From IMG/VR virus record IMGVR_UViG_3300031758_000005: a stretch of DNA of 64,000 nt, one strand, 5' to 3'. The DNA comes from a virus. Taxonomy: Duplodnaviria > Heunggongvirae > Uroviricota > Caudoviricetes. Numbering within the stretch: the stretch's first letter is position 1; every line of letters begins with the position of its first letter. Shown here in pieces: positions 35,647 through 53,147 of the stretch. The position numbers and the translations under genes are program-made. Under the pieces are notes generated by a model. The model searched no databases. It was not told the DNA's origin and saw nothing but the letters and a program-made list of their open reading frames with translations.

Positions 35647-35690
35647 ATCTTATATAATATTACCACGGTGCAATAAAAAAGTCAAGGAGA
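35647..35690 (-). promoter_or_regulatory. Conserved sigma70-like promoter, leaderless type, upstream of DNA ligase
   Basis: − strand reads CTTGACTT-N17-TAATAT-N10-ATG. Confidence 0.45.
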
Positions 35691-35708
35691 TTTTCATCGT
35701 CCTTGACT
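35672..35708 (-). terminator. Rho-independent terminator downstream of the DUF262 gene
   Basis: Stem AGTCAAGGA / TCCTTGACT, followed on the − strand by TTTTTTATT. Its arm overlaps the −35 of the ligase promoter. Confidence 0.55.
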
Positions 35709-35718
35709 TTGGTGTGGT

Positions 35719-36900
35719 TTAAGCAGAAACCGTGTTGATTTTTGTTTTATACTTATAAACTGCGGTTACGTTTTCGTCTGTCATTACCTTTGACTTGACC
35801 AAACCATTGGAAAGCAATTCATATCGCTTTTGACACTTTGGTGTTTCTCGTCCACGAAGCAATGCTGCATATGTCATTTTTTTGTCACCAACCTTATGAT
35901 CAGCTTCTGGATTCTTCTTTAGAAGAGCGTTGATTTCCACAAACTTATACATAAACGTCTTTACATCCTTGATCTGATTGCGATGACGGTGATAAAACAC
36001 GAACAAATCAAATACAGTTTGCTTACTTAGCTTCATACCGTCCTTGAATACATCTTCATTTGGAGCGACCCACGTATTGAAGAAGTTGTCTACATCATTT
36101 TTAAAAAGAGATGACTTGCTGTTTAGCTCAGATCCATCTTCGTATTCACTGCGAAGAATGCCATCACTAATATTCTTCTTGAATCCAAAACTATGAAAGA
36201 ATGCCATACCAGCAAATTGCGAGTCAATCTTACGACGGTTATAATCTTGTTCTGAAAAGATCGAAAGAATCCAACTACGTGTAGTGAAATCCCGATAATA
36301 TCTTTCGCCAAATTCACGACAAATCTTTGAAATTGGACTAATAATAGCATTACGCTTTTCAGCCGCGTTCAATTCACATCCACTATTTACAGCGATGAAA
36401 ATATCACTCAATTGTGAACGAGTTGCATTGGTATATACTTGAACTGTGATGGTACGAGTTAGAATGAAATCTTTAACTGATTCACTCAGATCCGCCCATC
36501 GTTGGTCACGCTTGATGGTAAACTTATTGTCCAGTTCATCTGAATATGTTCCAGCACGCAATTCAAGTTGATTTGTAAACAACAAACGCAACGTAGTAAA
36601 ACGGTTGTTACTATCCAAATTGAGATAGTTAGCTCCCTTGGAAAGCCAACCAGAGTAATAGTTGATATCTTCTGCCAACATTGCACTCTTTCTACATTCA
36701 GGAACGTCAGCAAAAATAAACTTGCTTGGAGCAATTCCCTTAAGCAAATTGTGGAGATAACTGCGTGACTTTGTTGCATCCCAACGAGCGGGACTCTGAA
36801 AACTATCGTCGATAAACACACTATCGAGAAACTTCTTTGCATTAGAAAGTTCCCAGTTTTCGGTTGTGGACTTAACCATCTTTTGATTGTTATTAATCAT
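35719..36900 (-). CDS. DUF262 / ParB-like nuclease-superfamily protein with a degenerate catalytic motif
   Basis: N-terminal SFQSPARWD...LHNLLKGIAPSKFIFA matches the DUF262 IPxFQR..W...LxxSLxxGxP pattern. LDSNNRFTTLRLL aligns with the DGQQRLTTL motif, here as DSNNR. Confidence 0.5.
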   Translation of the reverse strand: MINNNQKMVKSTTENWELSNAKKFLDSVFIDDSFQSPARWDATKSRSYLHNLLKGIAPSKFIFADVPECRKSAMLAEDINYYSGWLSKGANYLNLDSNNRFTTLRLLFTNQLELRAGTYSDELDNKFTIKRDQRWADLSESVKDFILTRTITVQVYTNATRSQLSDIFIAVNSGCELNAAEKRNAIISPISKICREFGERYYRDFTTRSWILSIFSEQDYNRRKIDSQFAGMAFFHSFGFKKNISDGILRSEYEDGSELNSKSSLFKNDVDNFFNTWVAPNEDVFKDGMKLSKQTVFDLFVFYHRHRNQIKDVKTFMYKFVEINALLKKNPEADHKVGDKKMTYAALLRGRETPKCQKRYELLSNGLVKSKVMTDENVTAVYKYKTKINTVSA

Positions 36901-37024
36901 ATTACTTTTTATTTTTTATACTGGAATTTTTGGTTATGACATAATTGTCTAATTAATAATTTTTATCTCAGACAGCGTAATTGCTTTTTGGATTCAAATT
37001 ATCAGTCGTGAACCAGTTACTCAC

Positions 37025-37060
37025 AACAAAATCATCTTATCAGTTGTTTCTTTAAAAGTC
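37025..37060 (-). promoter_or_regulatory. Sigma70-like promoter ~120 nt upstream of the DUF262 gene
   Basis: − strand reads CTTGACTTTTAAAGAAACAACTGATAAGAT. Confidence 0.35.
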
Positions 37061-37573
37061 AAGCGGAACATTGAGCGTTTTCCAAAACTTTTCGTTGAGA
37101 ATTTTTATAGGTACTTCGTTTTTTAGCTCAAAATTAGGATGTTCATACACATAATCGAGCAAAGTTTTTGCTGAAATGTAAAACAACACAATTTTATCAC
37201 TACACAATTTGGTGCAAAAATACCCACCATTGTTAAGAACTTCAGCTTTATCTTCCCAAATCAATTTTTTCAAATTGCCCGATGTATGTCCCAGATAAAT
37301 TGTGTTTGTTGGAGATACACGACGAATGTCTACACGAACAGTGGGGTCATTTGTCAATTCAAAATCCCACTTACTATTTGCTGGACTCTTTTTGATATTG
37401 GTATATTCGCTTTTGGTGGTCAAATAATCCAATATCATTCGTTCAATTAGTTCACCACATCCGCCTATTTTAACTTGATTGTAAACATAATCGTTGATCA
37501 TCTTATAGCGTTTTAATTCTTTAAGATAAATTTCACCCATATTATATACTTCAGATTTGAATTCAATATTCAT
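37052..37573 (-). CDS. Hypothetical protein (173 aa)
   Basis: ORF. Confidence 0.45.
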   Translation of the reverse strand: MNIEFKSEVYNMGEIYLKELKRYKMINDYVYNQVKIGGCGELIERMILDYLTTKSEYTNIKKSPANSKWDFELTNDPTVRVDIRRVSPTNTIYLGHTSGNLKKLIWEDKAEVLNNGGYFCTKLCSDKIVLFYISAKTLLDYVYEHPNFELKNEVPIKILNEKFWKTLNVPLDF

Positions 37574-37575
37574 TT

Positions 37576-38001
37576 TTAATTTTTTACAATTTCACCCTTA
37601 GCATCACTATACCACACTTCACCCACATTAAATTGCTTGACCACACTTTGACAACCACAACACGGCTTGCTGTTGTTCAACTTACCCGTTCGATCCACTC
37701 TAAGTACAACCATTTTAAAATCACTCAGATTCTCACGACCACTCTTCATACACACACTCAACTCAGCGTGAAGTCCAACAAGCTGATGGTTTTTATAATC
37801 ATATTCCAAAGTCTTGGGATGACTCTTACAGCTGTTTGTACCAATATGTACAATTTTACCACATCGAATCAAAAAAGCTATATGACTACACCTATGCTCA
37901 ATGTTGAGCGGACACATAGCCTTAGCAATGTCAATGGTACGCTTCAGAATCTTGCTGTTCATTACTAAACTCATACTACCATCGACTTTATAAAAAATCA
38001 A
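37576..38001 (-). CDS. Small CDA-fold (cytidine/deoxycytidylate-type) zinc deaminase
   Basis: HAELS zinc-ligand/catalytic Glu motif and PCCGC second zinc motif. 141 aa. Confidence 0.5.
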   Translation of the reverse strand: MIFYKVDGSMSLVMNSKILKRTIDIAKAMCPLNIEHRCSHIAFLIRCGKIVHIGTNSCKSHPKTLEYDYKNHQLVGLHAELSVCMKSGRENLSDFKMVVLRVDRTGKLNNSKPCCGCQSVVKQFNVGEVWYSDAKGEIVKN

Positions 38002-38014
38002 CTACATTTTTTAT

Positions 38015-38052
38015 ATTTTGAAATTTTGAGGTAGTTGTGATATGATATATTT
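38015..38052 (+). promoter_or_regulatory. Sigma70-like promoter abutting the start of the + strand gene at 38053
   Basis: TTGAAA-N17-TATGAT-N6-ATG. Confidence 0.4.
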
Positions 38053-38760
38053 ATGGAAAACCTTTATGTTGAAAAAATACACAATTCGATTGCCAAAGAA
38101 TTGATTGTTAAACATCATTATACACACAAGTGGACCATAGCCGAGTTGTGTATCGGAATTTACGACAAAAGCAAACGTAGTGTATTTTTTGACGTTCCTA
38201 CGCTGGTTGGCGCAGTTGTATTTGGACCCACTGCTGGCGCAAATGTGGCTAGAAGTGTGTCTCCACTATTAAATCATTCCAATTTATGGGAATTGAAACG
38301 ATTGTGGGTAGCAGATGAATTGGGTAAAAATACTGAAAGTTGGGTTATTGGTCAATGTTTGAAATATATCAAACAACATCACAGTGAAATAAAGTGTTTG
38401 ATCAGTTATGCTGATCCTGATGCTGGACACATTGGTACCATATATCAAGCTACCAATTGGCTGTATCAAGATATTGAAAGACGCAAAGGCACTAGTGGTT
38501 ATATTGTTAGTTTTGACGGTGGTATTAAATGGCAACACTCACGTACATTATTCAACAAATATGGAACATTCAACTATAATAAATTGGTGGAAGTGTTACC
38601 CAGACCATTTAAGATCAAAGAATTATCAGTTAAAGAACGATATATTTATCCTTTGGGAAGCAAAGTGGAAAAGAAAAATCTGATTAAAAGTTTGAATTAT
38701 CCCATTATAGAATATCCCAAACTCAAATCAGATAAAGAAACTGTAGTGGAATTTAATTAA
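38053..38760 (+). CDS. Hypothetical protein, possibly an acyltransferase-fold enzyme
   Basis: Lone + strand gene within the − block, with its own promoter-like element. The acyltransferase assignment is an impression from motif spacing only. Confidence 0.35.
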   Translation: MENLYVEKIHNSIAKELIVKHHYTHKWTIAELCIGIYDKSKRSVFFDVPTLVGAVVFGPTAGANVARSVSPLLNHSNLWELKRLWVADELGKNTESWVIGQCLKYIKQHHSEIKCLISYADPDAGHIGTIYQATNWLYQDIERRKGTSGYIVSFDGGIKWQHSRTLFNKYGTFNYNKLVEVLPRPFKIKELSVKERYIYPLGSKVEKKNLIKSLNYPIIEYPKLKSDKETVVEFN

Positions 38761-39601
38761 TAATCTTCAACTGAATGTTGCCAAGTGTAAGATTTTGCAC
38801 AATAACATTGTTTGCACTCAAAAACTCATACTTGCTTTCAACTCGCTTTACTTTACGATTACCCTTTTTGCTCTTACGATACACAATAACACCACCACTA
38901 TAACTGTTGATAATCATCTGCGCAACAGTCTTACGCCATTCATAAGCTGAAAAATTACCAACAGTATCAATCAAAATATTACCAGCCACATTGTTCTTAA
39001 AATTGTCGTTGGTTTTGATCATAGTCAACAAGGTATCAAACAATTCAAAATCAGAGCTTGAAAATTCAGTGACCTTTTTACGAAAATATTGATTAAAATA
39101 TTTGGTAATATCACTATCAACAAAATAGGTATTCAAAATTTTATCACAAAAAGATCGAATTGTAACAAGCTCATTGTACTTGTCAGTAACATTGCCACGG
39201 GTTTTGATAGCAAAATCAATGATGCCACTTTCTTTCTTCAATTCATAAGACTTATCACCCAACGTAACATCTCCAGTCTCACCACGCTTGATGATGCTCT
39301 TTCTTGAATTGGCAATCATCAAAAATACAGACAACTCACCACGACCAGTCTGATGCTTGATGTTTTCAGGTGACGCAAGCACATTGTCAATTTTATGTGC
39401 ATCACTATTAACATCATTCACCTCTTTGAGAAATGTGTCTACGTTGTCAAATTGCGGAATGCTGTTGATACCAATATTGGTCAAAGACGCAACCAAAGTG
39501 TCAATTTTGGATTGATGTGATTGAGTCTTGAGCTTGTCAAGACCATTTTTGATTTGATCGCTAAAAAAAGTGGTAGAATTGGTGCTCATTACAAGAACCA
39601 A
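38753..39601 (-). CDS. Hypothetical protein (282 aa)
   Basis: ORF. Confidence 0.45.
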   Translation of the reverse strand: MVLVMSTNSTTFFSDQIKNGLDKLKTQSHQSKIDTLVASLTNIGINSIPQFDNVDTFLKEVNDVNSDAHKIDNVLASPENIKHQTGRGELSVFLMIANSRKSIIKRGETGDVTLGDKSYELKKESGIIDFAIKTRGNVTDKYNELVTIRSFCDKILNTYFVDSDITKYFNQYFRKKVTEFSSSDFELFDTLLTMIKTNDNFKNNVAGNILIDTVGNFSAYEWRKTVAQMIINSYSGGVIVYRKSKKGNRKVKRVESKYEFLSANNVIVQNLTLGNIQLKIIN

Positions 39602-39631
39602 TCTACCACACTTTTTTCAAATGTCAACAGC

Positions 39632-40012: not shown

Positions 40013-40019
40013 AATAATA

Positions 40020-40751
40020 TTATTTTAAAGCCTTATAATTGTTGATGGGTGTATGCTTTTTTGTAAGTAAATCCTGATCAAGTACATCAATAGCTTTCTT
40101 TTTAGACTTATAAAAAGCATTGGTCAATACACGAAGTTCATAGTCTTCAATATTATATCCCATCTTGATATACTTAACCAATCGTTTCAACGTAACACTT
40201 GGATAATTAATGCTCTTTGGATTGAACTTCAAATTGTTATTTTGAATCTGGTTCAATACATTTTCTTCAATAACTACATTGTTACCATCATAAGCAATAC
40301 AACATAAATTGATATCAAATGACCTAAATAAATCTTCAATGGTATCAAAATACTTGAAACTCACACACTGAATCTTCCACTCTGTATCCATATAGGATAT
40401 TACCATTGTATGATGCCACTCAGATACAATATAACTGTTGACACTATACTTACCAGTTGATAAAGCATTGCTATTTAATTCAAGCAAATACTTATCCAAT
40501 TGTTCTTTGTTCTTAAAAAAGACATCCACATCACTATCACTCAGTGGTAGTTTACGATAGGTTCTATGTAAAGCACCCCCAGCAATCCAAGGTCCATCTT
40601 CATTACACTTGGGTAGAATCTCAATCAAATGTTCAAGTACACTACCAGTTGTCAAATGCTTTAGAAAAACATTCAACGACAGTTTATTTGTTTTAATTGG
40701 TACCACACATTCAGCTTGTGGCAGTTCTACGAATTTAACATCAGTTGACAT
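40020..40751 (-). CDS. Putative pol-beta-superfamily nucleotidyltransferase
   Basis: GGALHRTYRKLPLSDSDVDV fits hG[GS]x(9-14)DxD. Weak call. Confidence 0.35.
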   Translation of the reverse strand: MSTDVKFVELPQAECVVPIKTNKLSLNVFLKHLTTGSVLEHLIEILPKCNEDGPWIAGGALHRTYRKLPLSDSDVDVFFKNKEQLDKYLLELNSNALSTGKYSVNSYIVSEWHHTMVISYMDTEWKIQCVSFKYFDTIEDLFRSFDINLCCIAYDGNNVVIEENVLNQIQNNNLKFNPKSINYPSVTLKRLVKYIKMGYNIEDYELRVLTNAFYKSKKKAIDVLDQDLLTKKHTPINNYKALK

Positions 40752-40971
40752 AAATCTTCTTTAATAAATTTGGATAACAATTATCCTGATAAGTTTTGGT
40801 ATTCTTTCCACTACTATAACTCAAACATACACTTTCGTCAAGTACAGGTTCAAACTTGTGTTTAGTCTTATAAAACATATTTACACTATTATTGGTACAA
40901 GTCTGATAAAAATCACAACGTACACTCATACACATACCCAGATCATTGGTCTTAATACTATACTTTTTCAT
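40741..40971 (-). CDS. Cys-rich small protein
   Basis: Eight Cys in 76 aa. Confidence 0.4.
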   Translation of the reverse strand: MKKYSIKTNDLGMCMSVRCDFYQTCTNNSVNMFYKTKHKFEPVLDESVCLSYSSGKNTKTYQDNCYPNLLKKIYVN

Positions 40972-40973
40972 AA

Positions 40974-41011
40974 AAAAATAAGGGAGGTACTGTTATATAC
41001 CTCCCTTTTGA
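40974..41011. terminator. Bidirectional rho-independent terminator
   Basis: Stem GGGAGGTA / TACCTCCC flanked by AAAAAAATAA on one side and TTTTG on the other. Confidence 0.6.
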
Positions 41012-42064: not shown

Positions 42065-42356
42065 GTGAATTGAAATTGATAGTAGACGGATCTACATTCA
42101 AATCAATACCACCATCAACAACAAAAACCTTCAAATCCTTCTTAATCTCGGTAGAAGGTCCACCACTACAGCTACAACCAGAGCTATAACACCAAGTGAC
42201 GTTACCATCCTTGTCTACACCAACACCCTCATAAGAGTGATGACCATAACCCCAATTCTCATTCTCAATCTCCTTGAAAATGACAACGATATCATCATCA
42301 AACTTGCTCTTAGGAAGAGCGTCCCAATTCTGTACAATGTAATCTACGATATTCAT
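42039..42356 (-). CDS. Hypothetical protein (105 aa)
   Basis: ORF with the consensus promoter directly upstream. Confidence 0.45.
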   Translation of the reverse strand: MNIVDYIVQNWDALPKSKFDDDIVVIFKEIENENWGYGHHSYEGVGVDKDGNVTWCYSSGCSCSGGPSTEIKKDLKVFVVDGGIDLNVDPSTINFNSLEVEFDSY

Positions 42357-42398
42357 TACTCATCTAAGTTACCACGGAGTTTATACAAAGTCAACAAA
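42357..42398 (-). promoter_or_regulatory. Conserved promoter upstream of 42039..42356
   Basis: − strand reads TTGACTTTGTATAAACTCCGTGGTAACTT-N9-ATG. Confidence 0.45.
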
Positions 42399-42425: not shown

Positions 42426-42446
42426 ACCAATGTTACTTGTTATTTT

Positions 42447-43352: not shown

Positions 43353-43593
43353 TTTCTTTATTTTCTGACTTGATGTTCTTGACCAACTTGGTCACATCAC
43401 TTTTTAAGATTATCAGCGACCCGATAAAAAGTCCAGCGAAAAGTGCGGTTCCAACAAGATTTGCAACGTCACTCTTTTGATTAATTAAATTAGTGGATTG
43501 ATTAAACAAACAAGCGCCCACTGTAAGTACAACAAAATACTTTGCACAATACTTTACAATATTTTTATTACTAAACATAAATTTTTCATTCAT
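43345..43593 (-). CDS. Small membrane protein overlapping the SPFH gene (possible partner protein)
   Basis: Two hydrophobic helices. Its stop overlaps the SPFH start. Confidence 0.45.
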   Translation of the reverse strand: MNEKFMFSNKNIVKYCAKYFVVLTVGACLFNQSTNLINQKSDVANLVGTALFAGLFIGSLIILKSDVTKLVKNIKSENKENE

Positions 43594-43648
43594 ATCAAAT
43601 AGACTATACTACAAAAAAGAGGAACTGTCAAGTCCCTCTTAAATGTTT

Positions 43649-44293: not shown

Positions 44294-44744
44294 AAATCAT
44301 TACATCAATTCCTTCATTAAAGGATGGATCTTCATATTTTGATAGCATCCTATCAATAATATTTGTAGGCACAACTCTACCACCTTGTTCTCCTCGTTTC
44401 TTGTTTCTTTCAATTAATCCTTGACGATCCATCTTGAAAACAATAGCAACTACTTTTGCACCATATTTCTTTGCAGTCTTAATATAGTCACTACGTTCCT
44501 TACGGTTTACACTGGTTGCGTCAACCAATACATTTTTACCATCTTTTAGAAATTCGTCAACCTTTCTTTTGATGTGACCGAAAACAAGTGGGGTAACAGT
44601 TTGATCTTCTTCACTTTTACCATATACAGCACGTAGTGAATCACTACTTAGATATTCAATATCTTTGTCTTTAATAAAGTTTTTTGCATATGTGGATTTA
44701 CCACTTCCAGGCAATCCAACCGCAATATAAAGTGTATTATTCAT
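44286..44744 (-). CDS. Polynucleotide 5'-kinase (P-loop kinase domain, T4 PseT kinase-like)
   Basis: N-terminal LYIAVGLPGSGKSTYA aligns with the T4 Pnk N-terminus (...GCPGSGKSTWA). 152 aa, kinase domain only. Confidence 0.65.
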   Translation of the reverse strand: MNNTLYIAVGLPGSGKSTYAKNFIKDKDIEYLSSDSLRAVYGKSEEDQTVTPLVFGHIKRKVDEFLKDGKNVLVDATSVNRKERSDYIKTAKKYGAKVVAIVFKMDRQGLIERNKKRGEQGGRVVPTNIIDRMLSKYEDPSFNEGIDVMIYV

Positions 44745-44782
44745 ATGTACATCTTAACTCAACTTGTTATAAAGTCAAGAAA
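44745..44782 (-). promoter_or_regulatory. Conserved promoter upstream of the PNK-phosphatase operon
   Basis: − strand reads CTTGACTT-N16-TAAGAT-N6-ATG. Confidence 0.4.
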
Positions 44783-45220: not shown

Positions 45221-45229
45221 AACAAATAA

Positions 45230-45257: not shown

Positions 45258-45272
45258 ATTTATACTTAAAAA

Positions 45273-46346
45273 TTACGGTGTTTGTATAGCATTGAGTAAT
45301 GCTCTTGCTACAACACGATCTTTTTCTTTTTCTTCTTCAGGAAGTGAAGAATAATTTACATTTGACAATTTTCTTCTTTGTTCAATTTTAGCGTCCAATT
45401 TACCATTATCTCTCAACTTTTGAGTATCACTGAATTGGTCTGGGTTTGCCACAAACTTTTTAGCAGTTTCATTCCAACCACTATGAATTGCATCCGAAAT
45501 CTTTTCTATGTCAGTTACACCCGCGTCAATTACTCTTTTGGCAAATTCCGCTGATTTTAAATTGGCTTGCCATCCAAATGTATTACCCGGAGTGCTTCTA
45601 CCATAATGATAAGCATTATCCAATGCTTCATCACTAACGGTTGCCAAATCTTCTATTGACATATTTTCATTCAACTTCTTGTGTAGAAGTTTAAGATGCT
45701 TTTGAAATGTTTCGTTTAAAATATTCTGGTTCATATGATTATAAGTATCTTCGGTTATATGTAATTGTTTTAAAAAAAAGTCAACAATTTCTTTTATTAT
45801 AGGTGCTAATCCTTTCGTGGAAAACATAATATCAGATTCTTTTTCAACGTCATCAAAATCTAAATCATAACTTCCAAGCTTTAAACCATTAGTAATGATA
45901 TCACGTATACTTTTAAGTGCAGCTCCATCACCACTCAATCCTTTTTTATACAATATCAACTTTGCAACTTTCATTAATAAACCAATTGTAATTGTATAAT
46001 ATATCGTAATAGCAATATGTTTTAATTCAGATTCATCTTTTGTTTTTAGTTTTGGTATTTTTTTCAATACAAACACCAATCCATTAATATATGATGTAGC
46101 CCATTTATCAATATTATCTATTGCAATTTGAATTTTTGGTAACATAGTTTTTGTTACAAAATTTGCAGTCTTCGATTTGTTAGAATCAGCAAACAAATTT
46201 TTAGGCATAATTAATGCAATTAAATTTTTTACTATATTAAGAAATGCAGCAGATATTACTGGTAAGGTAAGCAGCAATGTCACAATTGATACTACATCTC
46301 CAATTCCTTCTACATATAGTTTTTTCTTATTTACATTTTTAGCCAT
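45273..46346 (-). CDS. Hypothetical protein (357 aa)
   Basis: ORF sharing an NETFQKHLKLLHKKLNEN motif with the next gene. Confidence 0.5.
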   Translation of the reverse strand: MAKNVNKKKLYVEGIGDVVSIVTLLLTLPVISAAFLNIVKNLIALIMPKNLFADSNKSKTANFVTKTMLPKIQIAIDNIDKWATSYINGLVFVLKKIPKLKTKDESELKHIAITIYYTITIGLLMKVAKLILYKKGLSGDGAALKSIRDIITNGLKLGSYDLDFDDVEKESDIMFSTKGLAPIIKEIVDFFLKQLHITEDTYNHMNQNILNETFQKHLKLLHKKLNENMSIEDLATVSDEALDNAYHYGRSTPGNTFGWQANLKSAEFAKRVIDAGVTDIEKISDAIHSGWNETAKKFVANPDQFSDTQKLRDNGKLDAKIEQRRKLSNVNYSSLPEEEKEKDRVVARALLNAIQTP

Positions 46347-46377
46347 ATTGATATAAATATATCTACAAAAAAATAAA

Positions 46378-46405
46378 CCCCACTAAATTAATAGTGGGGT
46401 TTTTG
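46378..46405. terminator. Bidirectional rho-independent terminator with the same stem sequence as 45230
   Basis: CCCCACTA aattaa TAGTGGGG, flanked by AAAAAAATAAA and TTTTTG. Confidence 0.65.
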
Positions 46406-46425
46406 CTTATTAAATTGATATAGTT

Positions 46426-47088: not shown

Positions 47089-47104
47089 TAAATATATACA
47101 AAAA

Positions 47105-47133
47105 AATAAAACCCATCAAATTAATGATGGGTT
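47105..47133 (-). terminator. Rho-independent terminator after the RNA ligase gene
   Basis: AACCCATCA / TGATGGGTT stem, with the − strand reading TTTTATTTTTTTG after it. Confidence 0.6.
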
Positions 47134-47139
47134 CTACTA

Positions 47140-48231
47140 TTAGTTCTTTAAGACTTGGAACATCAACTTCTTATATTCTTCCTTACCTAATGGACGATTA
47201 TCCAAGAGTTTAAATACAAAAGCAGCTCTGTTTGTTTCACCATAAGATGAAATAACCAGTTGTGCTTGTTCTTTTCTGGTAGGCAATGAACGAAGTCTGT
47301 TATTCACAAAACTATTCATACCATCCACAATCTTGTTTACTTCCTTCTTACCATCCGCAATACGGCTAATAGTACCTTTAATTTGTTCTGCTAACTCGAA
47401 ATCAAAGGTGGTAAAGATATAGTTATAAAAAGTGTTGTAGTCAGGCATACCCTGTTCCAACCACACATCCATAATTTTTTCCAGTGAACTAAGTTCAGAC
47501 TTTAGATGATGTAACAGGAGATATTTAGATGCTTTAATCTTATGAATAGTCTGATCATTCTTACTATATAAGCATACGCCTTCTTTATCTTGCCACTTAT
47601 CTACAATCTGTAACATATCAGTTATATCAGTAAAAGTATAGATTTCCGGACGAAGTAAATCATACTTCTTAGCCATAGCATCCAACATATCTTGTTGTGC
47701 AAGTGAATAGTTGATATGATTAATAAAACCAATCAACTTCCACATAGGTTCATCGCCATACGATAACACAATTTTATTGATTGGAGACAGCCATTCCCAA
47801 ATGATAGAATAACCCCAAGTATCATTGTTATCCTGTAACTTACTTAGAATAGTTGACTTGAACAATTCTAACTCAAAACCATTAGCCATAGTAGAAGCAT
47901 CAACAGTTCCACGGGTTCGTAGAATATATTGACCCTTATACTTGCTAACAATCAAAGTGCTACCGTCCAACTTTTCAACAACAGTGCAATGCTTCAATGA
48001 AGCAGGAACAGGAAAGTGTTCAGGATTCTCCCCATAGTTAGTAAACTTCGGAAATGATGCACTAATAACTTCACCCTCATAATTCACAACCACACTACGC
48101 ATGTGCTTGTTGTCTTGCGTCCACTTAGTGCCAATATTTTGGGGTTGAATCAAATGGACAATTTCACCGAAAGCGTGGAAATGGTGCACCATAAATTGAG
48201 TGCGGTCAACCTTATCTATGTCAATTTTCAT
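47140..48231 (-). CDS. RNA ligase-like nucleotidyltransferase (second copy, distinct family)
   Basis: VVEKLDGSTLIVSKY KxDG motif. Size of 363 aa is similar to T4 Rnl1. Leaderless-type promoter upstream. Confidence 0.55.
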   Translation of the reverse strand: MKIDIDKVDRTQFMVHHFHAFGEIVHLIQPQNIGTKWTQDNKHMRSVVVNYEGEVISASFPKFTNYGENPEHFPVPASLKHCTVVEKLDGSTLIVSKYKGQYILRTRGTVDASTMANGFELELFKSTILSKLQDNNDTWGYSIIWEWLSPINKIVLSYGDEPMWKLIGFINHINYSLAQQDMLDAMAKKYDLLRPEIYTFTDITDMLQIVDKWQDKEGVCLYSKNDQTIHKIKASKYLLLHHLKSELSSLEKIMDVWLEQGMPDYNTFYNYIFTTFDFELAEQIKGTISRIADGKKEVNKIVDGMNSFVNNRLRSLPTRKEQAQLVISSYGETNRAAFVFKLLDNRPLGKEEYKKLMFQVLKN

Positions 48232-48268
48232 AGATTTATCTTACAACAGATTTTAAAGAAAGTCAAGG
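48232..48268 (-). promoter_or_regulatory. Conserved promoter upstream of RNA ligase 47140..48231
   Basis: − strand reads CTTGACTTTCTTTAAAATCTGTTGTAAGAT-N6-ATG. The −35 overlaps the stop of the upstream gene. Confidence 0.45.
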
Positions 48269-48595
48269 TTCATCTTCAACATTTTCACCACATTCTTTGC
48301 AACTATCAAATAGTAGAAACAAAGACAGTTTTTCTTCCATTTTTTCTTTGCTTCCAAAGTGTTCTGTAAGTATTTCGTCTGCTTTGATATCATCTTTCCA
48401 ACCAGCCCAATTTCCGTCACCGGGAGTTCCACCCAATTCCAGATAATTACACCAAGGAAATTCCACACCATTGACATTTTTTACATCATAGTATGGACAC
48501 CGATTTACTGTGCCACGATAGTTGTTACTTTCACTAGGAACCTCTTTCCAAGTGTAACAATAATCTCCTTTGGGTATGACACTAGTGTCTTTCAT
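48263..48595 (-). CDS. Hypothetical protein (110 aa)
   Basis: ORF with the consensus promoter upstream. Confidence 0.45.
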   Translation of the reverse strand: MKDTSVIPKGDYCYTWKEVPSESNNYRGTVNRCPYYDVKNVNGVEFPWCNYLELGGTPGDGNWAGWKDDIKADEILTEHFGSKEKMEEKLSLFLLFDSCKECGENVEDEP

Positions 48596-48634
48596 ACAAC
48601 TACATTACTACACAGTTTAGAATAAGTCAAGCCA
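48596..48634 (-). promoter_or_regulatory. Conserved promoter upstream of 48263..48595
   Basis: − strand reads CTTGACTTATTCTAAACTGTGTAGTAATGT-N6-ATG. Confidence 0.5.
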
Positions 48635-49034
48635 AATATTTCAAAATGAAATAATTGCAAATTAGATGATAGGTATTATCACTTATAATGTATAGCCAAG
48701 TGCTAATAAACTTGGGTCTAGCATCTGGATCAGTATTTTTCCAATCGTCATAATAACCAGTAACGTTGCATTTATCATATGATGGATATGACCAATCTGG
48801 TCCAATTCGATTTTTATACCAAACAAAGTATTTGATAATACACCATCTATCTTGAATAAAGTGAGTGGCAAATATTAGAAATAGTGCTAGTATATTTTGA
48901 GTAAGCAACAAAAATGGTACAGTATATAACAAACAGTGAACCAAACAAGGAATAGATCGCTTGTTTTTATTCAAAGCCATCCAATCGCTTTGGAAATAAT
49001 AATCTGCTACTAAATGTACCAATAGTTGTTCCAT
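48627..49034 (-). CDS. Integral membrane protein (135 aa)
   Basis: Several hydrophobic segments. Confidence 0.45.
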   Translation of the reverse strand: MEQLLVHLVADYYFQSDWMALNKNKRSIPCLVHCLLYTVPFLLLTQNILALFLIFATHFIQDRWCIIKYFVWYKNRIGPDWSYPSYDKCNVTGYYDDWKNTDPDARPKFISTWLYIISDNTYHLICNYFILKYLA

Positions 49035-49035
49035 A

Positions 49036-49557
49036 TCAAAGTAGAGTTATATCTTCGTATCTGATTACCCAACCACCCTTTTTATTAATATCATCATTCA
49101 CAGTTACTTCATAAGTTTCTGGTTTAATGCCGGTAATATAGTGATTTTCATACTTCTTATAACCTTGTTTGGCATTTACCTTTTTGCCAATTACATCACT
49201 AGGAATCTCTAGAAAATTCTCTTTGGTCCATTGTCCAATAATTTCTTTGGTCAAACTATCCTTGATAGTACTAACACCATCCAGAATATATACCAATTCA
49301 CTATCTGGTTCAATATACTTATATTCACTCAAATATTGAGCAAGTGTAAATCCATCAGTATCAGATTCAAACAAACAATCAATAATGTCTTGTTCATAGG
49401 TTTCCTGTGTTTCTTCATAACCGCCACCAGAGGTACACCAATTTATATATTGATCAACAACACGATTAAAGTGTTTGTTTTCACGGTTAATATTTTCCCT
49501 TGAAAATTTAGGACGCTTAACCTTGTCTTGTAGCTTCATATAGGTTTGTTCACTCAT
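49036..49557 (-). CDS. Hypothetical protein (173 aa)
   Basis: ORF with the consensus promoter upstream. Confidence 0.45.
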   Translation of the reverse strand: MSEQTYMKLQDKVKRPKFSRENINRENKHFNRVVDQYINWCTSGGGYEETQETYEQDIIDCLFESDTDGFTLAQYLSEYKYIEPDSELVYILDGVSTIKDSLTKEIIGQWTKENFLEIPSDVIGKKVNAKQGYKKYENHYITGIKPETYEVTVNDDINKKGGWVIRYEDITLL

Positions 49558-49598
49558 AACTTTATAAGATTACCACACAGTTTATAACAAGTCAAGAA
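49558..49598 (-). promoter_or_regulatory. Conserved promoter upstream of 49036..49557
   Basis: − strand reads CTTGACTTGTTATAAACTGTGTGGTAATCT-N9-ATG, near-identical to the 48596 copy. Confidence 0.5.
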
Positions 49599-49942
49599 AT
49601 TTCTGGACACAAAGTTGCATCATACGCTCTTGGTAAAGAATCATCTCTACCATCTTTAAATGGAAATTTATGACAAACTGATGGGTAAAATTTATGAGAA
49701 TGTATTTTACATCCATTATTCCAAAATATACATCTTCCATTCCAAGTTTGGGTTCTATATTCTTTTTTATCATTATCAAAGAAAATAAAATTATCCCCAA
49801 ACTCATTTAACAGACCCTCACCTTCTTCTTTTGATAAGAAAGTTCCCCACTTACAACATACAGAGTTGTGAGGACACGGATTACATGGTAATATATTCAT
49901 ATTTTTGGCAGTTTGTAGTCTGGAATTTGACTTGGAAACCAA
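49592..49942 (-). CDS. Cys-rich hypothetical protein
   Basis: CNPCPHNSVCC ... CIFWNNGC ... C clusters. Confidence 0.4.
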   Translation of the reverse strand: MVSKSNSRLQTAKNMNILPCNPCPHNSVCCKWGTFLSKEEGEGLLNEFGDNFIFFDNDKKEYRTQTWNGRCIFWNNGCKIHSHKFYPSVCHKFPFKDGRDDSLPRAYDATLCPEIS

Positions 49943-50106
49943 AAGAAGTCTTCTTCAAAACTATAAAAAAAGTTTTGATTAGTAGCATGATTATACGCTT
50001 CCATTACAGTTCTGTCATTTAATGTACGTTGTTTACCCCTAAATTCCATGTGGGGATATTTTTTCTTAATTTCTTCTGGAACGTGAATATTCATTTGGCA
50101 ATCCAA
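49897..50106 (-). CDS. Hypothetical protein (69 aa)
   Basis: ORF overlapping the start of the previous gene. Confidence 0.35.
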   Translation of the reverse strand: MDCQMNIHVPEEIKKKYPHMEFRGKQRTLNDRTVMEAYNHATNQNFFYSFEEDFFWFPSQIPDYKLPKI

Positions 50107-50417
50107 TCGTGAAATCGTTGCGGTAAAAACATATAAATTGTTATTGTTGCAAGTGAAATTGTAACGGGTGATACATCTACCTTAAATAGATGATACAACA
50201 ATATACTTGTACCCAATGACAATATCAAATTAACAATAAACGCTAAAAATAATTTCATAGAAATATTGATTGAATGCTCTTTAACTTACGATTAAGTTCT
50301 TTATTTTCTTCTTTCAGTTGTTCAACTTCTTGCATTAATCTAGAGTTTTCTTCGTGTAAATTTCTAATGTTATCCATTAAATCTCGTAAGATATCTTCAT
50401 TACTTTCAAAGTCCATA

Positions 50418-50630
50418 TTATTCTACCTTTCCATATACAGTTTCAACATCAATATAATAATTAGGCAATCCAAATGGACGAATAGTGAACTTCCAAGTCT
50501 TTTCCCTATCCTTGAAGTTATAACCACTAATAAATCCAATACCACGGTTAGTGTTTACCTTGTCACCAAAATGATAAGGAAGAGGATTTTCAGCAAGAAC
50601 TTTGGCGAACAACTCATTATTATTGATCAT
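50418..50630 (-). CDS. Hypothetical protein (70 aa)
   Basis: ORF. Confidence 0.4.
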   Translation of the reverse strand: MINNNELFAKVLAENPLPYHFGDKVNTNRGIGFISGYNFKDREKTWKFTIRPFGLPNYYIDVETVYGKVE

Positions 50631-50654
50631 ATAACAACTTTACCCCAACTTTTT

Positions 50655-51182
50655 TTAAATGTCAAACACTTTTCCGTCAAAATATGCTTTACATCCCAAA
50701 ACTCGGTCAATCGCAAAGATTTTCACATCAGCTTCACTAAACATAGTAAATGTAGCATTATCGTGTCCCTTCCATTGTTCACGTTGTGCCTCATTACACA
50801 AATCATTAAATTGCCGGTGTATATAAACATCTTTGATGCCACTTTGGATGATTCCCCTAGCACAGTCTGCACAAGGCAAAGCATTGGTATAAAGAATTGC
50901 GCCATCGGTGTTTATACCGTACCTAGCAGCTGCGTAAATCGCATTGCGTTCACCGTGTTCGTACCATTTGTACTTTTCTGGTCGTTCGTTACGAATTTCA
51001 TTTTTGTCTGCTACCCCAATAGGAATGCCATTGAAGCCAGTAGATATGATTCGTTTGTCTTTTACAATGAGAGCACCAATCTTTGTCTTGGGATCTTTGG
51101 ATTTACTTGCAACCCAATAGACTCCTTGTAAAAACCATTCGTTCCAATCTGGTGGTGTATAATTTAATCCCATAAGTGACAA
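50655..51182 (-). CDS. dCMP deaminase
   Basis: HGERNAI zinc/catalytic motif and PCADCA motif. Overall T4 Cd-like layout, 175 aa. Confidence 0.8.
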   Translation of the reverse strand: MSLMGLNYTPPDWNEWFLQGVYWVASKSKDPKTKIGALIVKDKRIISTGFNGIPIGVADKNEIRNERPEKYKWYEHGERNAIYAAARYGINTDGAILYTNALPCADCARGIIQSGIKDVYIHRQFNDLCNEAQREQWKGHDNATFTMFSEADVKIFAIDRVLGCKAYFDGKVFDI

Positions 51183-51709
51183 TAGTATTTTGCAAATAGT
51201 TCTAGACCTTTTTGTTTGCGTTCTTGTAATTCATTGTGTTTTTTCATCCACTCATCAAAAGATTGTTTTTGTTCTGGAGTTTTTCCTTTATTTAGAAGCC
51301 ATTCTGTATCTCCAAGATAATGTGGAAATGGATTGAATCGTTCGTCATCATTTAGATATTCAAATGTCCAAATAAGTTCATCAAGTACATTTTCCCATTC
51401 TTCTGGTGTGAAATCTGGATGATAACCATACCGTTTCATTTTCTTGAAGTGTTTTAGTCTGGGTAGAATAAACTTACTGAATGTACCATCCAAACTCCAA
51501 CATTCTTCATTACTTACACCATAACGCATACGTTGATATGTACTAATAAACCATCGTTTAATGTCATGACATTTGTAATATACACGCCAACCATATGGTA
51601 CTGTATCAAACAACCAGTCACCAAATTTATTGGTTCTATACCATTTTTCTTCTGAAAGAGGTGTGTTTTCAGAATCTTCTAATCGTTCGTTGATTTTTTT
51701 GAGATCCAT
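51164..51709 (-). CDS. Hypothetical protein (181 aa)
   Basis: ORF with a promoter-like TTGACA-N16-TATAGT immediately upstream. Confidence 0.45.
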   Translation of the reverse strand: MDLKKINERLEDSENTPLSEEKWYRTNKFGDWLFDTVPYGWRVYYKCHDIKRWFISTYQRMRYGVSNEECWSLDGTFSKFILPRLKHFKKMKRYGYHPDFTPEEWENVLDELIWTFEYLNDDERFNPFPHYLGDTEWLLNKGKTPEQKQSFDEWMKKHNELQERKQKGLELFAKYYCHLWD

Positions 51710-51748
51710 ATTACAACTATATCACAGAGTGTATATGTGTCAAACAAA
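51710..51748 (-). promoter_or_regulatory. Sigma70-like promoter upstream of 51164..51709
   Basis: − strand reads TTGACA-N16-TATAGT-N6-ATG. Confidence 0.4.
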
Positions 51749-51771
51749 AAACCCCACATTTTACTGTGGGG
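51745..51771 (-). terminator. Rho-independent terminator
   Basis: CCCCACA / TGTGGGG stem, with the − strand followed by TTTTTTGTTTG. Confidence 0.6.
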
Positions 51772-51797
51772 TATGATGAATAAACAAACAAATGAAA

Positions 51798-52019
51798 TTA
51801 TTTAACGTTTTTCAAACCAGGATGTGCTTTGTGCCAAGGCATTTCGTGTACAACTGTTGGTGCTTGGTTAGACCATCTAGCTTGTTGTGGTTGTTGGGCT
51901 TGTTGTTGAGCTTGATCCATTTGTTGAGCAGCTAACATAGCATTTGCGGTACCTGGATTGTTGCTGGTAAGACCTACAACTGGATTTTGTGTTTTGATTC
52001 CTAAATAAAGACCTGACAT
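51798..52019 (-). CDS. Gln-rich small protein
   Basis: ORF followed by a terminator hairpin. Confidence 0.4.
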   Translation of the reverse strand: MSGLYLGIKTQNPVVGLTSNNPGTANAMLAAQQMDQAQQQAQQPQQARWSNQAPTVVHEMPWHKAHPGLKNVK

Positions 52020-52048
52020 AGTGTTATACCTTTTGTTAAATATAACTA

Positions 52049-52246
52049 TTAAGCTTTATCATCATTATACACAAAATTATCACTAAACATAGAATATAAA
52101 TAATCGTGATGTTTATCTTCTAAAAGATATTCACGTATATCAATAATGCGACGGTCATCACAACAATGACACTGCATATAAATCTTATCCCGCTTTAATT
52201 TAGCTGGCATATCACAATAATTGCAAGTAATTTGAAGGTTGTCCAT
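52049..52246 (-). CDS. Small zinc-ribbon-like protein
   Basis: CNYC ... CHCC Cys pairs. Confidence 0.4.
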   Translation of the reverse strand: MDNLQITCNYCDMPAKLKRDKIYMQCHCCDDRRIIDIREYLLEDKHHDYLYSMFSDNFVYNDDKA

Positions 52247-52271
52247 ATACTATAAAAATATCATACATTTT

Positions 52272-52308
52272 AAATAAAACAAGGGATGTCACTGTTACGT
52301 AACATCCC
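52272..52308 (-). terminator. Rho-independent terminator after the metallophosphoesterase gene
   Basis: GGGATGT / ACATCCC stem, with the − strand followed by TTGTTTTATTT. Confidence 0.5.
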
Positions 52309-52329
52309 CCATTATATTGTAACATTAGG

Positions 52330-53109
52330 TTACAGATCGCTATAGTTCTTCAGTTCAATCTTACCATTTAGTATGGTAATATACTGACTAAGATTACAAT
52401 CAATACAAATGTTGTTTGCATCAACGATATTAGCAAATCCTTCTCTATGATATTGTGCGGCTTTACCAGTTCGCCATTGATTTGTATGACCCACAATTTG
52501 TCTCAACTCTTCAATGGGTTGAAACTCTTCGTTAAAATCACACCAAACAATACCACCACATTTGTTTCTACCACCCCTTGCATATCCAGCGCCATAAAAC
52601 CAATGTGGTTCATTGATCTTTAGTTTGGTTCTAGCATCATTATCACTTTGATCCAGATACTTGAAGATAACTTCATTTGTGGCACAAATTGGAGGTAACA
52701 AACGTTTATCCAATCCAGCGTGGGTTAATAGAATATCATCTACAACAATCGACCAGTGAAACTTATCTTGTATATCACCTCTGACCTTGCCAATAACGTT
52801 ATCAATTGCATCATACTTCCATTGTTCATAACCACTACACCAAGATGTAGAAGCATTAAACAGATAGTGTATATCGTGATTACCAAATAGAGTATAGTTC
52901 TTTGGGTTAGGAAGAAATACATCTCTTAGATATTTGGCTGTAGCAACATAGTCAGTAACATCATCCAAATTGAAACTATCAAACCAATCACCCAAACAAA
53001 TGTTGATATCGCCATCTTCTTTGGTAAAGATGGTATCCAACTTTGTGTAATGATTATGTGGATCAGCAGCAATTACAATCTTTTGTTTATTGGAACTAAA
53101 CTTTAGCAT
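52330..53109 (-). CDS. Calcineurin-like metallophosphoesterase (Ser/Thr phosphatase or diadenosine-tetraphosphatase type)
   Basis: DPHNHY ... GDWFDS ... GNHDIHY motifs. Confidence 0.7.
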   Translation of the reverse strand: MLKFSSNKQKIVIAADPHNHYTKLDTIFTKEDGDINICLGDWFDSFNLDDVTDYVATAKYLRDVFLPNPKNYTLFGNHDIHYLFNASTSWCSGYEQWKYDAIDNVIGKVRGDIQDKFHWSIVVDDILLTHAGLDKRLLPPICATNEVIFKYLDQSDNDARTKLKINEPHWFYGAGYARGGRNKCGGIVWCDFNEEFQPIEELRQIVGHTNQWRTGKAAQYHREGFANIVDANNICIDCNLSQYITILNGKIELKNYSDL

Positions 53110-53147
53110 ACTGAGAGTATAACACGATTATTTTTAAAAGTCAAGTG
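53110..53147 (-). promoter_or_regulatory. Conserved promoter upstream of metallophosphoesterase 52330..53109
   Basis: − strand reads CTTGACTTTTAAAAATAATCGTGTTATACT-N6-ATG. Confidence 0.45.

Follow-up and report, generated by a model that had tools for sequence, protein, structure and literature searches.

How are the early genes of a phage translated if the promoter-like element in front of them ends only about six nucleotides before the start codon and Shine-Dalgarno (SD) sequences are absent? The question is raised by a 64,000-nt stretch of DNA (hereafter the window) from an abundant, large freshwater phage that is uncultured, myovirus-like and T4-like in its affinities. The elements are probably early promoters of the sigma-70 type, whose first-cistron mRNAs would be leaderless or nearly so and SD-less, and which would double as cassettes for gene shuffling.

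All ten elements listed in the original prediction were found at the coordinates given there, nine of them 6-10 nt before an ATG and the more distal one, as described there, at 37034-37062, 133 nt upstream of the next gene. The pattern TTGACN{17,19}TANNNTN{6,10}ATG has 14 matches in the window, all on the − strand and 13 of them at gene starts, compared with 1.74 ± 1.56 (maximum 7) in 100 dinucleotide-preserving shuffles, none of which reaches 14; the original observation had been understated. With relaxed matching, the Mom gene on the + strand and three weaker sites are included as well (about 17 copies). Without the ATG, the promoter pattern has 22 matches on the − strand (8.4 ± 2.8 in shuffles) and 2 on the + strand (6.5 in shuffles). 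As a generic sigma-70 consensus scan of the window is not enriched (99 vs 90.9), the signal resides in the stricter pattern and its position. Each element combines a −35 of TTGAC(T/A) with a −10 of TAnnnT, which is frequently extended by TGn, across a spacer of 16-17 nt; the proposed extended form CTTGACTT fits about half of the window copies, but is not general in the family, and the two copies described as almost identical (48630 and 49595) show 4 differences in 30 positions when read by eye. The predicted promoters are as follows (−35, spacer in nt, −10, gap to the ATG):

35644..35685, − strand: ATP-dependent DNA ligase gene (34549-35646); TTGACT-17-TAATAT-10 nt-ATG; a 10-bp hairpin (−18 kcal/mol, z −5.3) reaches into the −35 with its 3' arm and T-tract
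37034..37062, − strand: 393-aa gene, 133 nt downstream; TTGACT-17-TAAGAT; the only copy with a long, structured leader
37960..38001, − strand: dCMP-deaminase-like gene, weaker promoter, divergent from the Mom promoter; TTGATT-17-TAGTAT-10 nt-ATG at 37962
38018..38055, + strand: Mom-family gene (38053-38760), the sole + strand copy; TTGAAA-17-TATGAT-6 nt-ATG, TG before the −10; 6-nt gap in 4/4 orthologous variants
39587..39627, − strand: 278-aa gene; TTGACA-16-TAGATT-10 nt-ATG; 10-nt gap kept in 5/5 orthologous variants
42354..42394, − strand: 105-aa gene heading the RNA-ligase (PHA02142-type) operon; TTGACT-17-TAACTT-9 nt-ATG; terminator-like hairpin and T-tract directly upstream
43591..43631, − strand: 82-aa gene heading the Band-7 operon; TTGACA-17-TATAGT-9 nt-ATG; −35 in the loop of the terminator hairpin 43617-43640, whose T-tract forms the spacer
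44742..44778, − strand: AAA_33/PNK-like kinase gene; TTGACT-16-TAAGAT-6 nt-ATG; 6 nt in 8/8 orthologous variants with 7 different linkers
48229..48266, − strand: RNA ligase (T4 Rnl1-like) gene; TTGACT-17-TAAGAT-6 nt-ATG; upstream TGA stop within TTGAC
48593..48630, − strand: 110-aa gene; TTGACT-17-TAATGT-6 nt-ATG; upstream TGA stop within TTGAC
49555..49595, − strand: 173-aa gene; TTGACT-17-TAATCT-9 nt-ATG (6 nt in most orthologous promoters); upstream TGA stop within TTGAC
50628..50665, − strand: 70-aa ORF (50418-50630); TTGACA-17-TAAAGT-6 nt-ATG; −35 inside the 3' end of the dCMP deaminase gene; 6 nt in 9/9 orthologous variants
51707..51743, − strand: 181-aa gene; TTGACA-16-TATAGT-6 nt-ATG, TG before the −10; terminator 51751-51772 immediately upstream
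53107..53144, − strand: metallophosphatase gene; TTGACT-17-TATACT-6 nt-ATG
55430..55467, − strand: weaker promoter ahead of six or more small overlapping genes that form an operon; TTGTGT-17-TATTAT-6 nt-ATG
57340..57378, − strand: thymidylate synthase ATG, promoter inside the 3' end of the DHFR gene; TTGACC-17-TATACT-7 nt-ATG
60955..60993, − strand: 129-aa gene; TTGATT-17-TATAGT-7 nt-ATG
61313..61353, − strand: 105-aa gene; TTGACA-17-TATCTT-9 nt-ATG

The −35 hexamer often contains the stop codon of the upstream gene, and hairpins are found at only 4 of the 18 copies. Because of its 133-nt leader, the distal copy indicates that the start-abutting design is not universal. The promoter of the dCMP-deaminase-like gene, for which gene callers give both 132 aa and 128 aa, implies a start at 37962 rather than 37974. 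The elements occur only on the strand and in the region with ligases, a kinase, phosphatases, td/frd and Mom, with none before structural genes in the 64-kb window; they look like promoters serving the early gene block. Other ATGs are preceded at 5-6 nt by a second start-adjacent motif, ATATTTAT, which may represent a second promoter class, putatively a late promoter:

46344..46360, − strand: ATATTTAT-6 nt-ATG, after the terminator 46375-46402
17194-17210, + strand: copy of ATATTTAT
25972-25988, + strand: copy of the same class, with the sequence ATATTTAA
27022-27040, + strand: copy of ATATTTAT
47080-47095, − strand: copy of ATATTTAT
55520-55535, + strand: copy of ATATTTAT
63080-63095, − strand: copy of ATATTTAT

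The claim that SD sequences are missing was borne out, as AGGA, GGAG or GAGG occurs at −20..−4 in 4 of 88 window genes (4.5 expected), and anti-SD pairing in the window is weaker than in random sequence; the relatives are SD-poor, not SD-free (53 of 396 genes vs 23.3 expected). Internal genes overlap (ATGA-type) or sit at most 7 nt after their predecessor, and the remaining junctions are gaps of 31-90 nt, about half of which contain one of these promoters.

In the window and 52 loci of the same or related metagenomic phages (L001-L052), the gap between −10 and ATG, counted at 254 unique sites, is 6 nt at 69, 7 nt at 10, 8 nt at 8, 9 nt at 17 and 10 nt at 11 sites, while every other distance from 0 to 40 occurs at 4 sites at most. 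Orthologous promoters keep the length of the gap and vary the sequence of the linker, with 6 nt in 8/8, 11/12 and 9/9 variants and 6-7 different linkers per set. RNA polymerase usually initiates near the seventh base past the −10, so that with a 6-nt gap the start would fall on the A of the ATG, the geometry of a leaderless mRNA. The usual start-site dinucleotide is a pyrimidine at −1 and an A at +1; in the 6-nt class, all 10 cluster representatives have a pyrimidine at −1, and the A of the ATG is at +1. At genes without TTGAC, TANNNT at 6 nt is not enriched (2 of 72 vs 2.3 expected), which argues that it is not a general translation signal. The leaderless or very short-leader mRNAs of the original prediction therefore agree with the geometry of the gap (mode 6 nt, length conserved), whereas the start site itself is one that we infer; about a third of the window copies have gaps of 9-10 nt, predicting leaders of 2-4 nt that are not strictly leaderless.

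In the proposed mechanism, each promoter would head a short operon in the early-gene arm, with its −10 hexamer ending 6 nt (mode) or 7-10 nt ahead of the first ATG, and the 5' end of the transcript would consequently coincide with the A of the AUG or precede it by 1-4 nt. On the first cistron, the ribosome would bind the 5'-terminal AUG directly, without an SD sequence, and downstream cistrons would be translated by coupling or re-initiation at AU-rich, unstructured junctions. A complete expression signal could be as short as 31-35 nt because no leader would be needed, and it would often share the stop codon or terminator of the upstream gene.

The same promoters could also fire without producing functionally leaderless mRNAs, if transcription started a few bases away, translation were SD-independent in another manner and the spacing reflected genome compaction only; candidate routes are S1-dependent loading on AU-rich sequence or a downstream start. 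The whole genome, internal genes included, initiates without SD, so that the host must possess an SD-independent, non-leaderless route; the 9-10 nt class exists, and the 5' ends of promoter-adjacent genes show no reduction in structure relative to other genes (−3.8 vs −2.8 kcal/mol, p = 0.34), hence they bear no independent translational signature. Compaction, however, predicts the shortest gaps or a broad spread instead of a sharp maximum at 6 nt, and the conserved length of a variable linker, the match of −1 and +1 to a start at the A, and homologues that align from residue 1 with a conserved ATG make this explanation unlikely. Quite unlikely, too, is a middle-type class read by a phage-modified RNA polymerase or with a phage-encoded sigma factor or co-activator bound at the spacer, although the spacer is well conserved from one orthologous copy to the next (TTTCTTTAAAATC...), two of the window copies are nearly identical, and the transcription and replication module of the phage lies outside the recovered sequence, so that it could encode such factors. 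When orthologous copies are collapsed into 25 clusters before information content is computed, the spacer is nearly information-free except for the TGn extended −10, and only TTGAC, TGn T/G and TAnnnT are informative. The suggested "phage-specific extended promoter" is thus a canonical housekeeping-sigma promoter, and the spacer TAAACTGTGT, put forward as a possible activator site, dissolves into TGTG, which is the extended −10, and TAAA, which carries about 0.1 bit across non-orthologous promoters. The housekeeping consensus is matched by the −35, the spacer length and the −10, very similar promoters occur in the cultured phage HTVC008M (TTGACTTTT...TGTGATATAAT), and the early class of Melnitz, a T4-like phage of a streamlined marine host, was derived from BPROM-predicted sigma-70 promoters (PMC9004378). 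By their sequence, the elements are sigma-70-type promoters with a TGn extended −10, whose consensus is that of bacterial housekeeping promoters and may not be the host's.

The predicted promoters also bound gene cassettes that are, judging from the relatives, shuffled in the manner of promoter-early stem-loop (PeSL) cassettes in T4-type phages. Position 48266, the first base of a −35, is the left boundary of a conserved module in at least seven relatives, and L016 and L019 lack exactly the 110-aa gene that is flanked by two promoter copies. The promoter in front of the RNA ligase gene is kept in relatives with 52-91% protein identity even where the genes upstream of it differ, which speaks for the promoter reading. 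That homology breaks exactly at this base in seven loci, together with the exact loss in L016 and L019, could be taken to mean that the repeat is first of all a linker for recombination or a cassette boundary (PeSL- or integron-like) with a secondary likeness to promoters. Yet a recombination site needs neither two hexamers with a TGn extension nor strict co-orientation with genes, post-terminator placement and a fixed distance to the ATG, and we regard this as very improbable; moreover, PeSL elements are promoters and recombination substrates at once (PMC2839356), so that the two roles are compatible.

Classical leaderless phage mRNA is known from lambda cI, which when transcribed from PRM starts at the A of its AUG and is translated independently of SD, and leaderless transcripts are widespread in Thermus phage P23-45. 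Phage transcripts have been described as often leaderless in the paper on AR9 (PMC5312081, citing Brock et al., 2008). Cases of the lambda cI type are, however, isolated genes in SD-using genomes, whereas the window phage, whose genome is SD-poor, follows this layout at virtually all of its promoter-proximal early genes. Leaderless transcription has as its signature a −10 box placed 6-8 nt ahead of the start codon (PMC6028130), and this was validated experimentally, spacing requirement included, in Deinococcus radiodurans (PMC12340547). Actinobacteria and Deinococcus-Thermus (GeneMarkS-2 'group C'; '−10 region adjacent to ORFs') likewise have TAnnnT 6-8 nt before operon-first starts that lack SD (PMC6028130, PMC12340547, PMC3160421), and the window phage resembles them in its gap mode of 6 nt. 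In contrast to this phage regulon, these are cellular genomes, in which internal and leadered genes use SD, as no gene class does in the window phage, and in which the −35 is usually weak instead of a strong TTGAC with a TGn extension.

Closer to the window in arrangement are the PeSL cassettes of the T4-type phages RB49 and phi1 (Arbiol et al., 2010, PMC2839356), as in both systems repeated sigma-70-like early promoters in a variable early region flank small genes of unknown function, stem-loop terminators overlap some copies or are joined to them, and breakpoints of insertion, deletion or replacement between relatives fall in promoter copies. PeSLs differ in having an SD between −10 and ATG, whereas the window copies have none and the ATG follows 6 nt after the −10; they are also about 100 bp long, AT-rich in their upstream part and G/C-rich in their stems, compared with a unit of about 35 nt and a hairpin in just 4 of 18 copies. 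HTVC008M, a cultured T4-like Pelagibacter phage (Kyanoviridae), shares no protein similarity with the early or tail-fibre regions of the window, but has a very similar −35 and extended −10 (TTGACTTTT...TGTGATATAAT or TGATAGGAT) with the ATG just 7-13 nt past the −10 and no SD between, and its late motif TATAAATA lies exactly 5 nt before the ATG in five genes, the same geometry as ATATTTAT. It differs in that about half of its genes have an SD (88 of 189 vs 8.9 expected) and its early gaps centre on 11-12 nt, compared with 6 in the window phages. What would be new here, and is undescribed for such phages, is the combination of predicted start-abutting bacterial-type promoters with a near-absence of ribosome-binding sites.

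All ten elements that the original prediction had interpreted as a recurrent promoter close to start codons are present where it had placed them, and comparison with shuffled sequence, a check named beforehand, supported their enrichment. The pattern TTGACN{17,19}TANNNTN{6,10}ATG has 14 matches in the window, every one of them on the − strand, where shuffles give 1.74 ± 1.56 (maximum 7), and 13 of these strict matches terminate on the ATG of a gene. The two-hexamer pattern without the ATG is overrepresented on the − strand (22 vs. 8.4 ± 2.8) and rarer than expected on the + strand (2 vs. 6.5). Relaxed matching of the −35 adds the promoter of the Mom gene (+ strand) and three weaker − strand sites, so that strict and relaxed searches together yield about 17 start-adjacent promoters and one distal copy. 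A generic sigma-70 consensus scan of the window showed no enrichment (99 vs. 90.9), which is uninformative because the DNA is AT-rich; the signal is confined to the stricter TTGAC...TAnnnT pattern and its position.

The 14 strict copies have spacers of 16–17 nt, as in sigma-70-type promoters with a TTGACA-like −35, a TAnnnT −10 and 17 ± 1 nt between them. When orthologous copies were collapsed to 25 clusters, with TTGAC and TA...T preset by the search pattern, appreciable information beyond these bases was found only at a TGn extended −10 (T 0.64 and G 0.52 at the positions ahead of the base preceding the −10), TG also being flagged at several window copies, and the flank upstream of the promoter is mildly T-rich. 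A longer extended form had been proposed, yet neither the C ahead of TTGAC nor the TT behind it is general in this profile, and the 'TAAA' spacer, suggested earlier as the binding site of a phage activator, carries about 0.1 bit, which does not support such a role. Because only TGn is informative beyond the preset hexamers, the element is regarded as a putative canonical housekeeping-type (sigma-70-type) promoter.

The distance between promoter and start codon is strongly restricted. From the last T of the −10 to the ATG, the gap in the window is 6 nt in six of the 14 strict sites, 7 nt in one, 9 nt in four and 10 nt in two, and in the family, i.e., the window together with 52 loci of the same or related phages, 69 of 254 unique sites lie at 6 nt, 10 at 7 nt, 8 at 8 nt, 17 at 9 nt and 11 at 10 nt, with four sites or fewer at every other distance up to 40 nt. 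Within orthologous promoter families the length of the linker is constant and its sequence varies: the 6-nt gap is found in 8/8 variants of the kinase gene promoter, with seven different linkers, in 11/12 variants of the RNA ligase promoter and in 9/9 variants of the promoter of a 70-aa ORF, and a 10-nt gap is retained in 5/5 variants ahead of a 278-aa gene. In the 6-nt class, −1 is always a pyrimidine and +1 corresponds to the A of the ATG. Before genes without an upstream TTGAC, TANNNT at 6 nt is not enriched (2/72 vs. 2.3 expected), which rules it out as a general translation signal, and the hexamer therefore belongs to the promoter. A −10 box located 6–8 nt ahead of the start codon is an accepted signature of leaderless transcription (PMC6028130), which in Deinococcus has been confirmed experimentally, including the spacing requirement (PMC12340547), and the 6-nt mode in both the window and the family falls within this range.

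The claim that the window lacks Shine-Dalgarno (SD) sequences was borne out, as AGGA, GGAG or GAGG at −20 to −4 occurs in 4/88 genes (4.5 expected); anti-SD pairing is predicted to be weaker than in random sequence, and a 6-nt gap leaves no space for an SD. The relatives are SD-poor rather than SD-free, with an SD in 53/396 genes compared to 23.3 expected (2.3-fold). Upstream regions in the window are rich in A/T and depleted of G/C, and −1 is a T in 74% of window genes and in 73% of the 396 genes in relatives (L012–L045), as opposed to 16–52% in related T4-like contigs that use SD, while G and C are nearly absent from this position; the T(−1) bias could represent a host-specific initiation context. 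In GeneMarkS-2 group C, internal and leadered genes use SD, whereas in the window SD is at chance level in all genes. Same-strand junctions fall into two classes, namely overlaps or gaps of ≤7 nt, and gaps of 31–90 nt, about half of which contain a promoter of the TTGAC class, those of 31–34 nt having the length of exactly one promoter. Most of the 31–90 nt gaps without such a promoter contain a terminator and/or a second start-adjacent motif, ATATTTAT. At 40972–41007 (−), the ATG of a 76-aa gene (40741–40971) directly follows the T-tract of a terminator hairpin (40980–41007), and no promoter-like element was found before this ATG; read-through of the terminator is one possibility for its expression.

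Many promoters are interlocked with the end of the preceding gene. At 48263–48266, 48627–48630 and 49592–49595, TTGAC supplies the TGA stop codon of the gene before it, and an upstream TAA stop lies within TTGACTTTTAA at 37052–37062 and 53134–53144; in the family, 37/131 start-adjacent promoters use the TGA of TTGAC to terminate a preceding open frame of 50 codons or more. Terminator hairpins are fused to four promoters, abutting or overlapping the −35 at 35685, 42394, 43631 and 51743, and the other 14 copies are without one. In two of the four (35685 and 43631) the hairpin contains the −35 and the T-tract serves as the spacer, and in the other two (42394 and 51743) the promoter follows the terminator directly. 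When window positions 47932–49600, upstream of the RNA ligase gene, were compared with seven related loci (L008, L016, L018, L019, L020, L035, and L037), the homology stopped in all seven right at 48266/48267, where the −35 starts, with differing upstream neighbors, and a 110-aa gene located between two promoter copies is precisely missing in L016 and L019. This shuffling mirrors the behavior of the promoter-early stem-loop (PeSL) cassettes, which mediate modular shuffling in the T4-type phages RB49 and phi1 (PMC2839356). As with PeSL cassettes, the promoters of the window mark the limits of insertions, deletions and replacements among relatives; unlike PeSL cassettes, where an SD is placed between −10 and ATG, the cassettes of the window have no SD or other ribosome-binding site (RBS).

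The joint reading of promoter type, spacing and gene junctions, to which we assign a good probability, is that a host-type holoenzyme would start transcription on the A of the AUG or 1–4 nt upstream, the first cistron would be translated as a leaderless mRNA, and later cistrons would be translated through coupling. Its weak points are the subclass with 9–10 nt gaps and the 5' ends of promoter-adjacent genes, which bear no distinctive structural signature, as they did not differ from other genes when tested for weaker structure. Three rivals remain, which are not all mutually exclusive. One retains the promoters and has them read by a phage-modified polymerase, to be set beside the canonical hexamers, spacer length and TGn described above. 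Another assumes very short leaders that are translated via a different SD-independent route, and here the 9–10 nt subclass and the 6-nt mode, with +1 at the A of the ATG, have to be weighed together. According to the third, the elements are primarily recombination linkers; the homology boundary at the first base of the −35 bears on this, as does the fixed distance to the ATG. Leaderless initiation from a housekeeping-type promoter, followed by coupling, is nevertheless the preferred reading.

Gene callers and promoter predictors that assume leaders and an RBS would misplace starts in such DNA. Judging by the position of its promoter, the deaminase-like gene at 37576–37974 (−) probably starts at the ATG at 37962 (128 aa) and not at 37974 (132 aa), public gene calls being split between the two. 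The longest ORF at 50274–51131 (+), with 285 aa, is spurious, as the − strand instead carries a dCMP deaminase (50655–51182; Pfam E = 1.8e-19) followed by the promoter-headed 70-aa ORF (50418–50630). At 36901–37062 (−), the distal promoter copy precedes a conserved 133-nt leader of a 393-aa gene. The predicted fold of this leader is more stable than that of shuffled sequence (−22 kcal/mol, z −2.9), and a putative ORF of 18 codons with a GTG start begins in it 9 nt past the −10; a role as regulatory leader or small RNA is conceivable.

The second motif, ATATTTAT, followed by 4–7 nt and ATG, occurs in seven copies in the window (1.19 ± 1.12 expected). Written as ATATTTAT(A/T), it is found 5–8 nt ahead of ATGs.

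Copies of ATATTTAT(A/T) in the window
17194–17210, + strand, copy of the second motif
25972–25988, + strand, copy of the second motif
27022–27040, + strand, copy of the second motif
55520–55535, + strand, copy of the second motif
46344–46360, − strand, copy of the second motif
47080–47095, − strand, copy of the second motif
63080–63095, − strand, copy of the second motif

The genes that follow include + strand tail-fiber genes, a GIY-YIG gene, a metallophosphatase gene and two terminator-flanked genes of the early arm. In the family, 71/275 unique sites lie in a peak 4–8 nt before ATGs, which is absent for the A/T 8-mers used as controls, the T4 late consensus TATAAATA among them. The motif differs from the T4-type late promoter, in which TATAAATA lies at about −10 and is read by a gp55-type sigma factor, and no homolog of such a factor was recovered for the window's phage. 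In the cultured Pelagibacter phage HTVC008M (NC_020484), TATAAATA precedes the ATG by exactly 5 nt in five genes, or in nine if ATAAATA is included (e.g., record positions 6267, 7549, 31119, and 49747 on the + strand and 18929 on the − strand), a distance like that of ATATTTAT in the window (5–6 nt). It may be hypothesized that ATATTTAT is the late or middle promoter of the lineage, with the same leaderless geometry.

The window has a G+C content of ~34% and comprises two arms within its 64 kb. The 1–32.8 kb arm (+) encodes large tail-fiber and baseplate-wedge-like proteins with collagen-like and lectin-type domains, and the 32.8–64 kb arm (mostly −) encodes many small genes as well as an ATP-dependent DNA ligase, two RNA ligases, a PNK-like kinase, metallophosphatases, a dCMP deaminase, DHFR, thymidylate synthase, a GIY-YIG endonuclease and a Mom homolog. 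A segment at 2029 and 4775 is nearly identical in the 1210-aa and 932-aa tail-fiber-like genes, and three tandem repeat units of 162 nt lie at 21641–21965 within a 455-aa gene (20840–22207), which would point to paralogous tail-fiber genes and repeated domains. At 55533–56213 (+), a GIY-YIG/I-TevI-like homing endonuclease gene overlaps, on the opposite strand, the 3' end of the thymidylate synthase gene (56191–57342), an arrangement that recalls T4 td/I-TevI, and a second, split GIY-YIG ORF lies near 60321–60578. Searches of the window for Rfam families and tRNAs returned none.

A nucleotide search of deposited phages gave no match, and proteins identical to those of the window are found on many freshwater lake metagenome contigs, with dozens to hundreds of related contigs in IMG/VR. 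We infer a T4-like affiliation from PHROG hits, the frd-td-homing-endonuclease arrangement and a shared 202-aa protein. The latter is 76–83% identical to proteins on contigs carrying terminase, sheath, tube, neck and capsid genes, and these structural genes are 33–55% identical to those of HTVC008M (TerL and sheath 53–55%). A walk of ~35 kb leftward on related contigs in search of T4 core genes recovered further tail-fiber and accessory genes only.

HTVC008M, which infects SAR11, uses SD in 88/189 genes (8.9 expected), and has similar TTGACTTTT-type early promoters with the ATG 7–13 nt after the −10 and no SD. Together with its TATAAATA sites 5 nt before ATGs, this makes first cistrons with no or almost no leader likely in a cultured phage too. 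Identity with the freshwater SAR11 'fonsimyophage' (PMC7029224), suggested by GC content, the Lake Erie samples and the resemblance of the promoters, looks unlikely, since HTVC008M relies heavily on SD and has no proteins in common with the window regions compared. The cyanomyovirus S-CRM01 is SD-poor, but its promoters do not adjoin ATGs, and Flavobacterium phage immuto is SD-free with A-rich upstream regions, but has none of the TTGAC promoters. Caulobacter phage Cr30 and the huge phage LR756511, which provide the best ligase matches, both use SD and lack the design, and more distant T4-like contigs with the 202-aa protein use SD and show no T(−1) bias. As these comparators do not have the full set, SD avoidance, T(−1) and start-adjacent promoters are specific to this lineage when taken together.

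The host should combine a canonical housekeeping sigma factor with SD-independent initiation, a profile that cyanobacteria and some Burkholderiales in GeneMarkS-2 'group X' would fit (PMC6028130). A Bacteroidota host or sigma-A promoter type (TTTG/TAnnTTTG) was rejected, as TAnnTTTG has no positional signal in the window, and TANNTTTG shows no positional peak before window ATGs. A first genome scan for the host gave no match, and a search of genome bins gave three uninformative matches of 63–67% identity to discordant taxa (a cyanobacterium, Rhodoferax, and Bacteroidales).

A broader view, which we put forward tentatively and hold to be rather improbable as a whole, is that a widespread freshwater T4-related lineage has almost abandoned SD, that the TTGAC and ATATTTAT classes both place +1 at the A of the AUG, and that every operon is leaderless first and then coupled. 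If so, promoter plus ORF, with an overhead of ~35 nt, would form a self-contained RBS-free cassette shuffled between genomes, and the phage may win preferential translation where host mRNAs are leadered.

If the preferred reading given above is confirmed, the regulon would consist nearly entirely of leaderless first cistrons and coupling, in a genome that ignores the SD mechanism. A complete expression signal would be compacted to ~35 nt by making use of the stop codon or terminator of the preceding gene. Dozens of orthologous families would then provide natural, sequence-diverse leaderless promoter/start-codon junctions with a fixed 6-nt spacing, from which the requirements of leaderless initiation could be learned.

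A literature search turned up no paper reporting a leaderless early regulon for T4-like, SAR11 or cyanobacterial phages, or a T4-related phage with a systematically start-codon-abutting early regulon in an SD-poor genome. The separate components are already known, namely leaderless genes, PeSL cassettes and, in T4-type phages, early promoters resembling sigma-70 promoters; what appears to be new here, pending transcript mapping, is an early regulon, and possibly a second class as well, that systematically abuts the start codon in an SD-poor T4-related phage, which would widen the T4-type 'mobile regulatory cassette' idea to cassettes free of an RBS.
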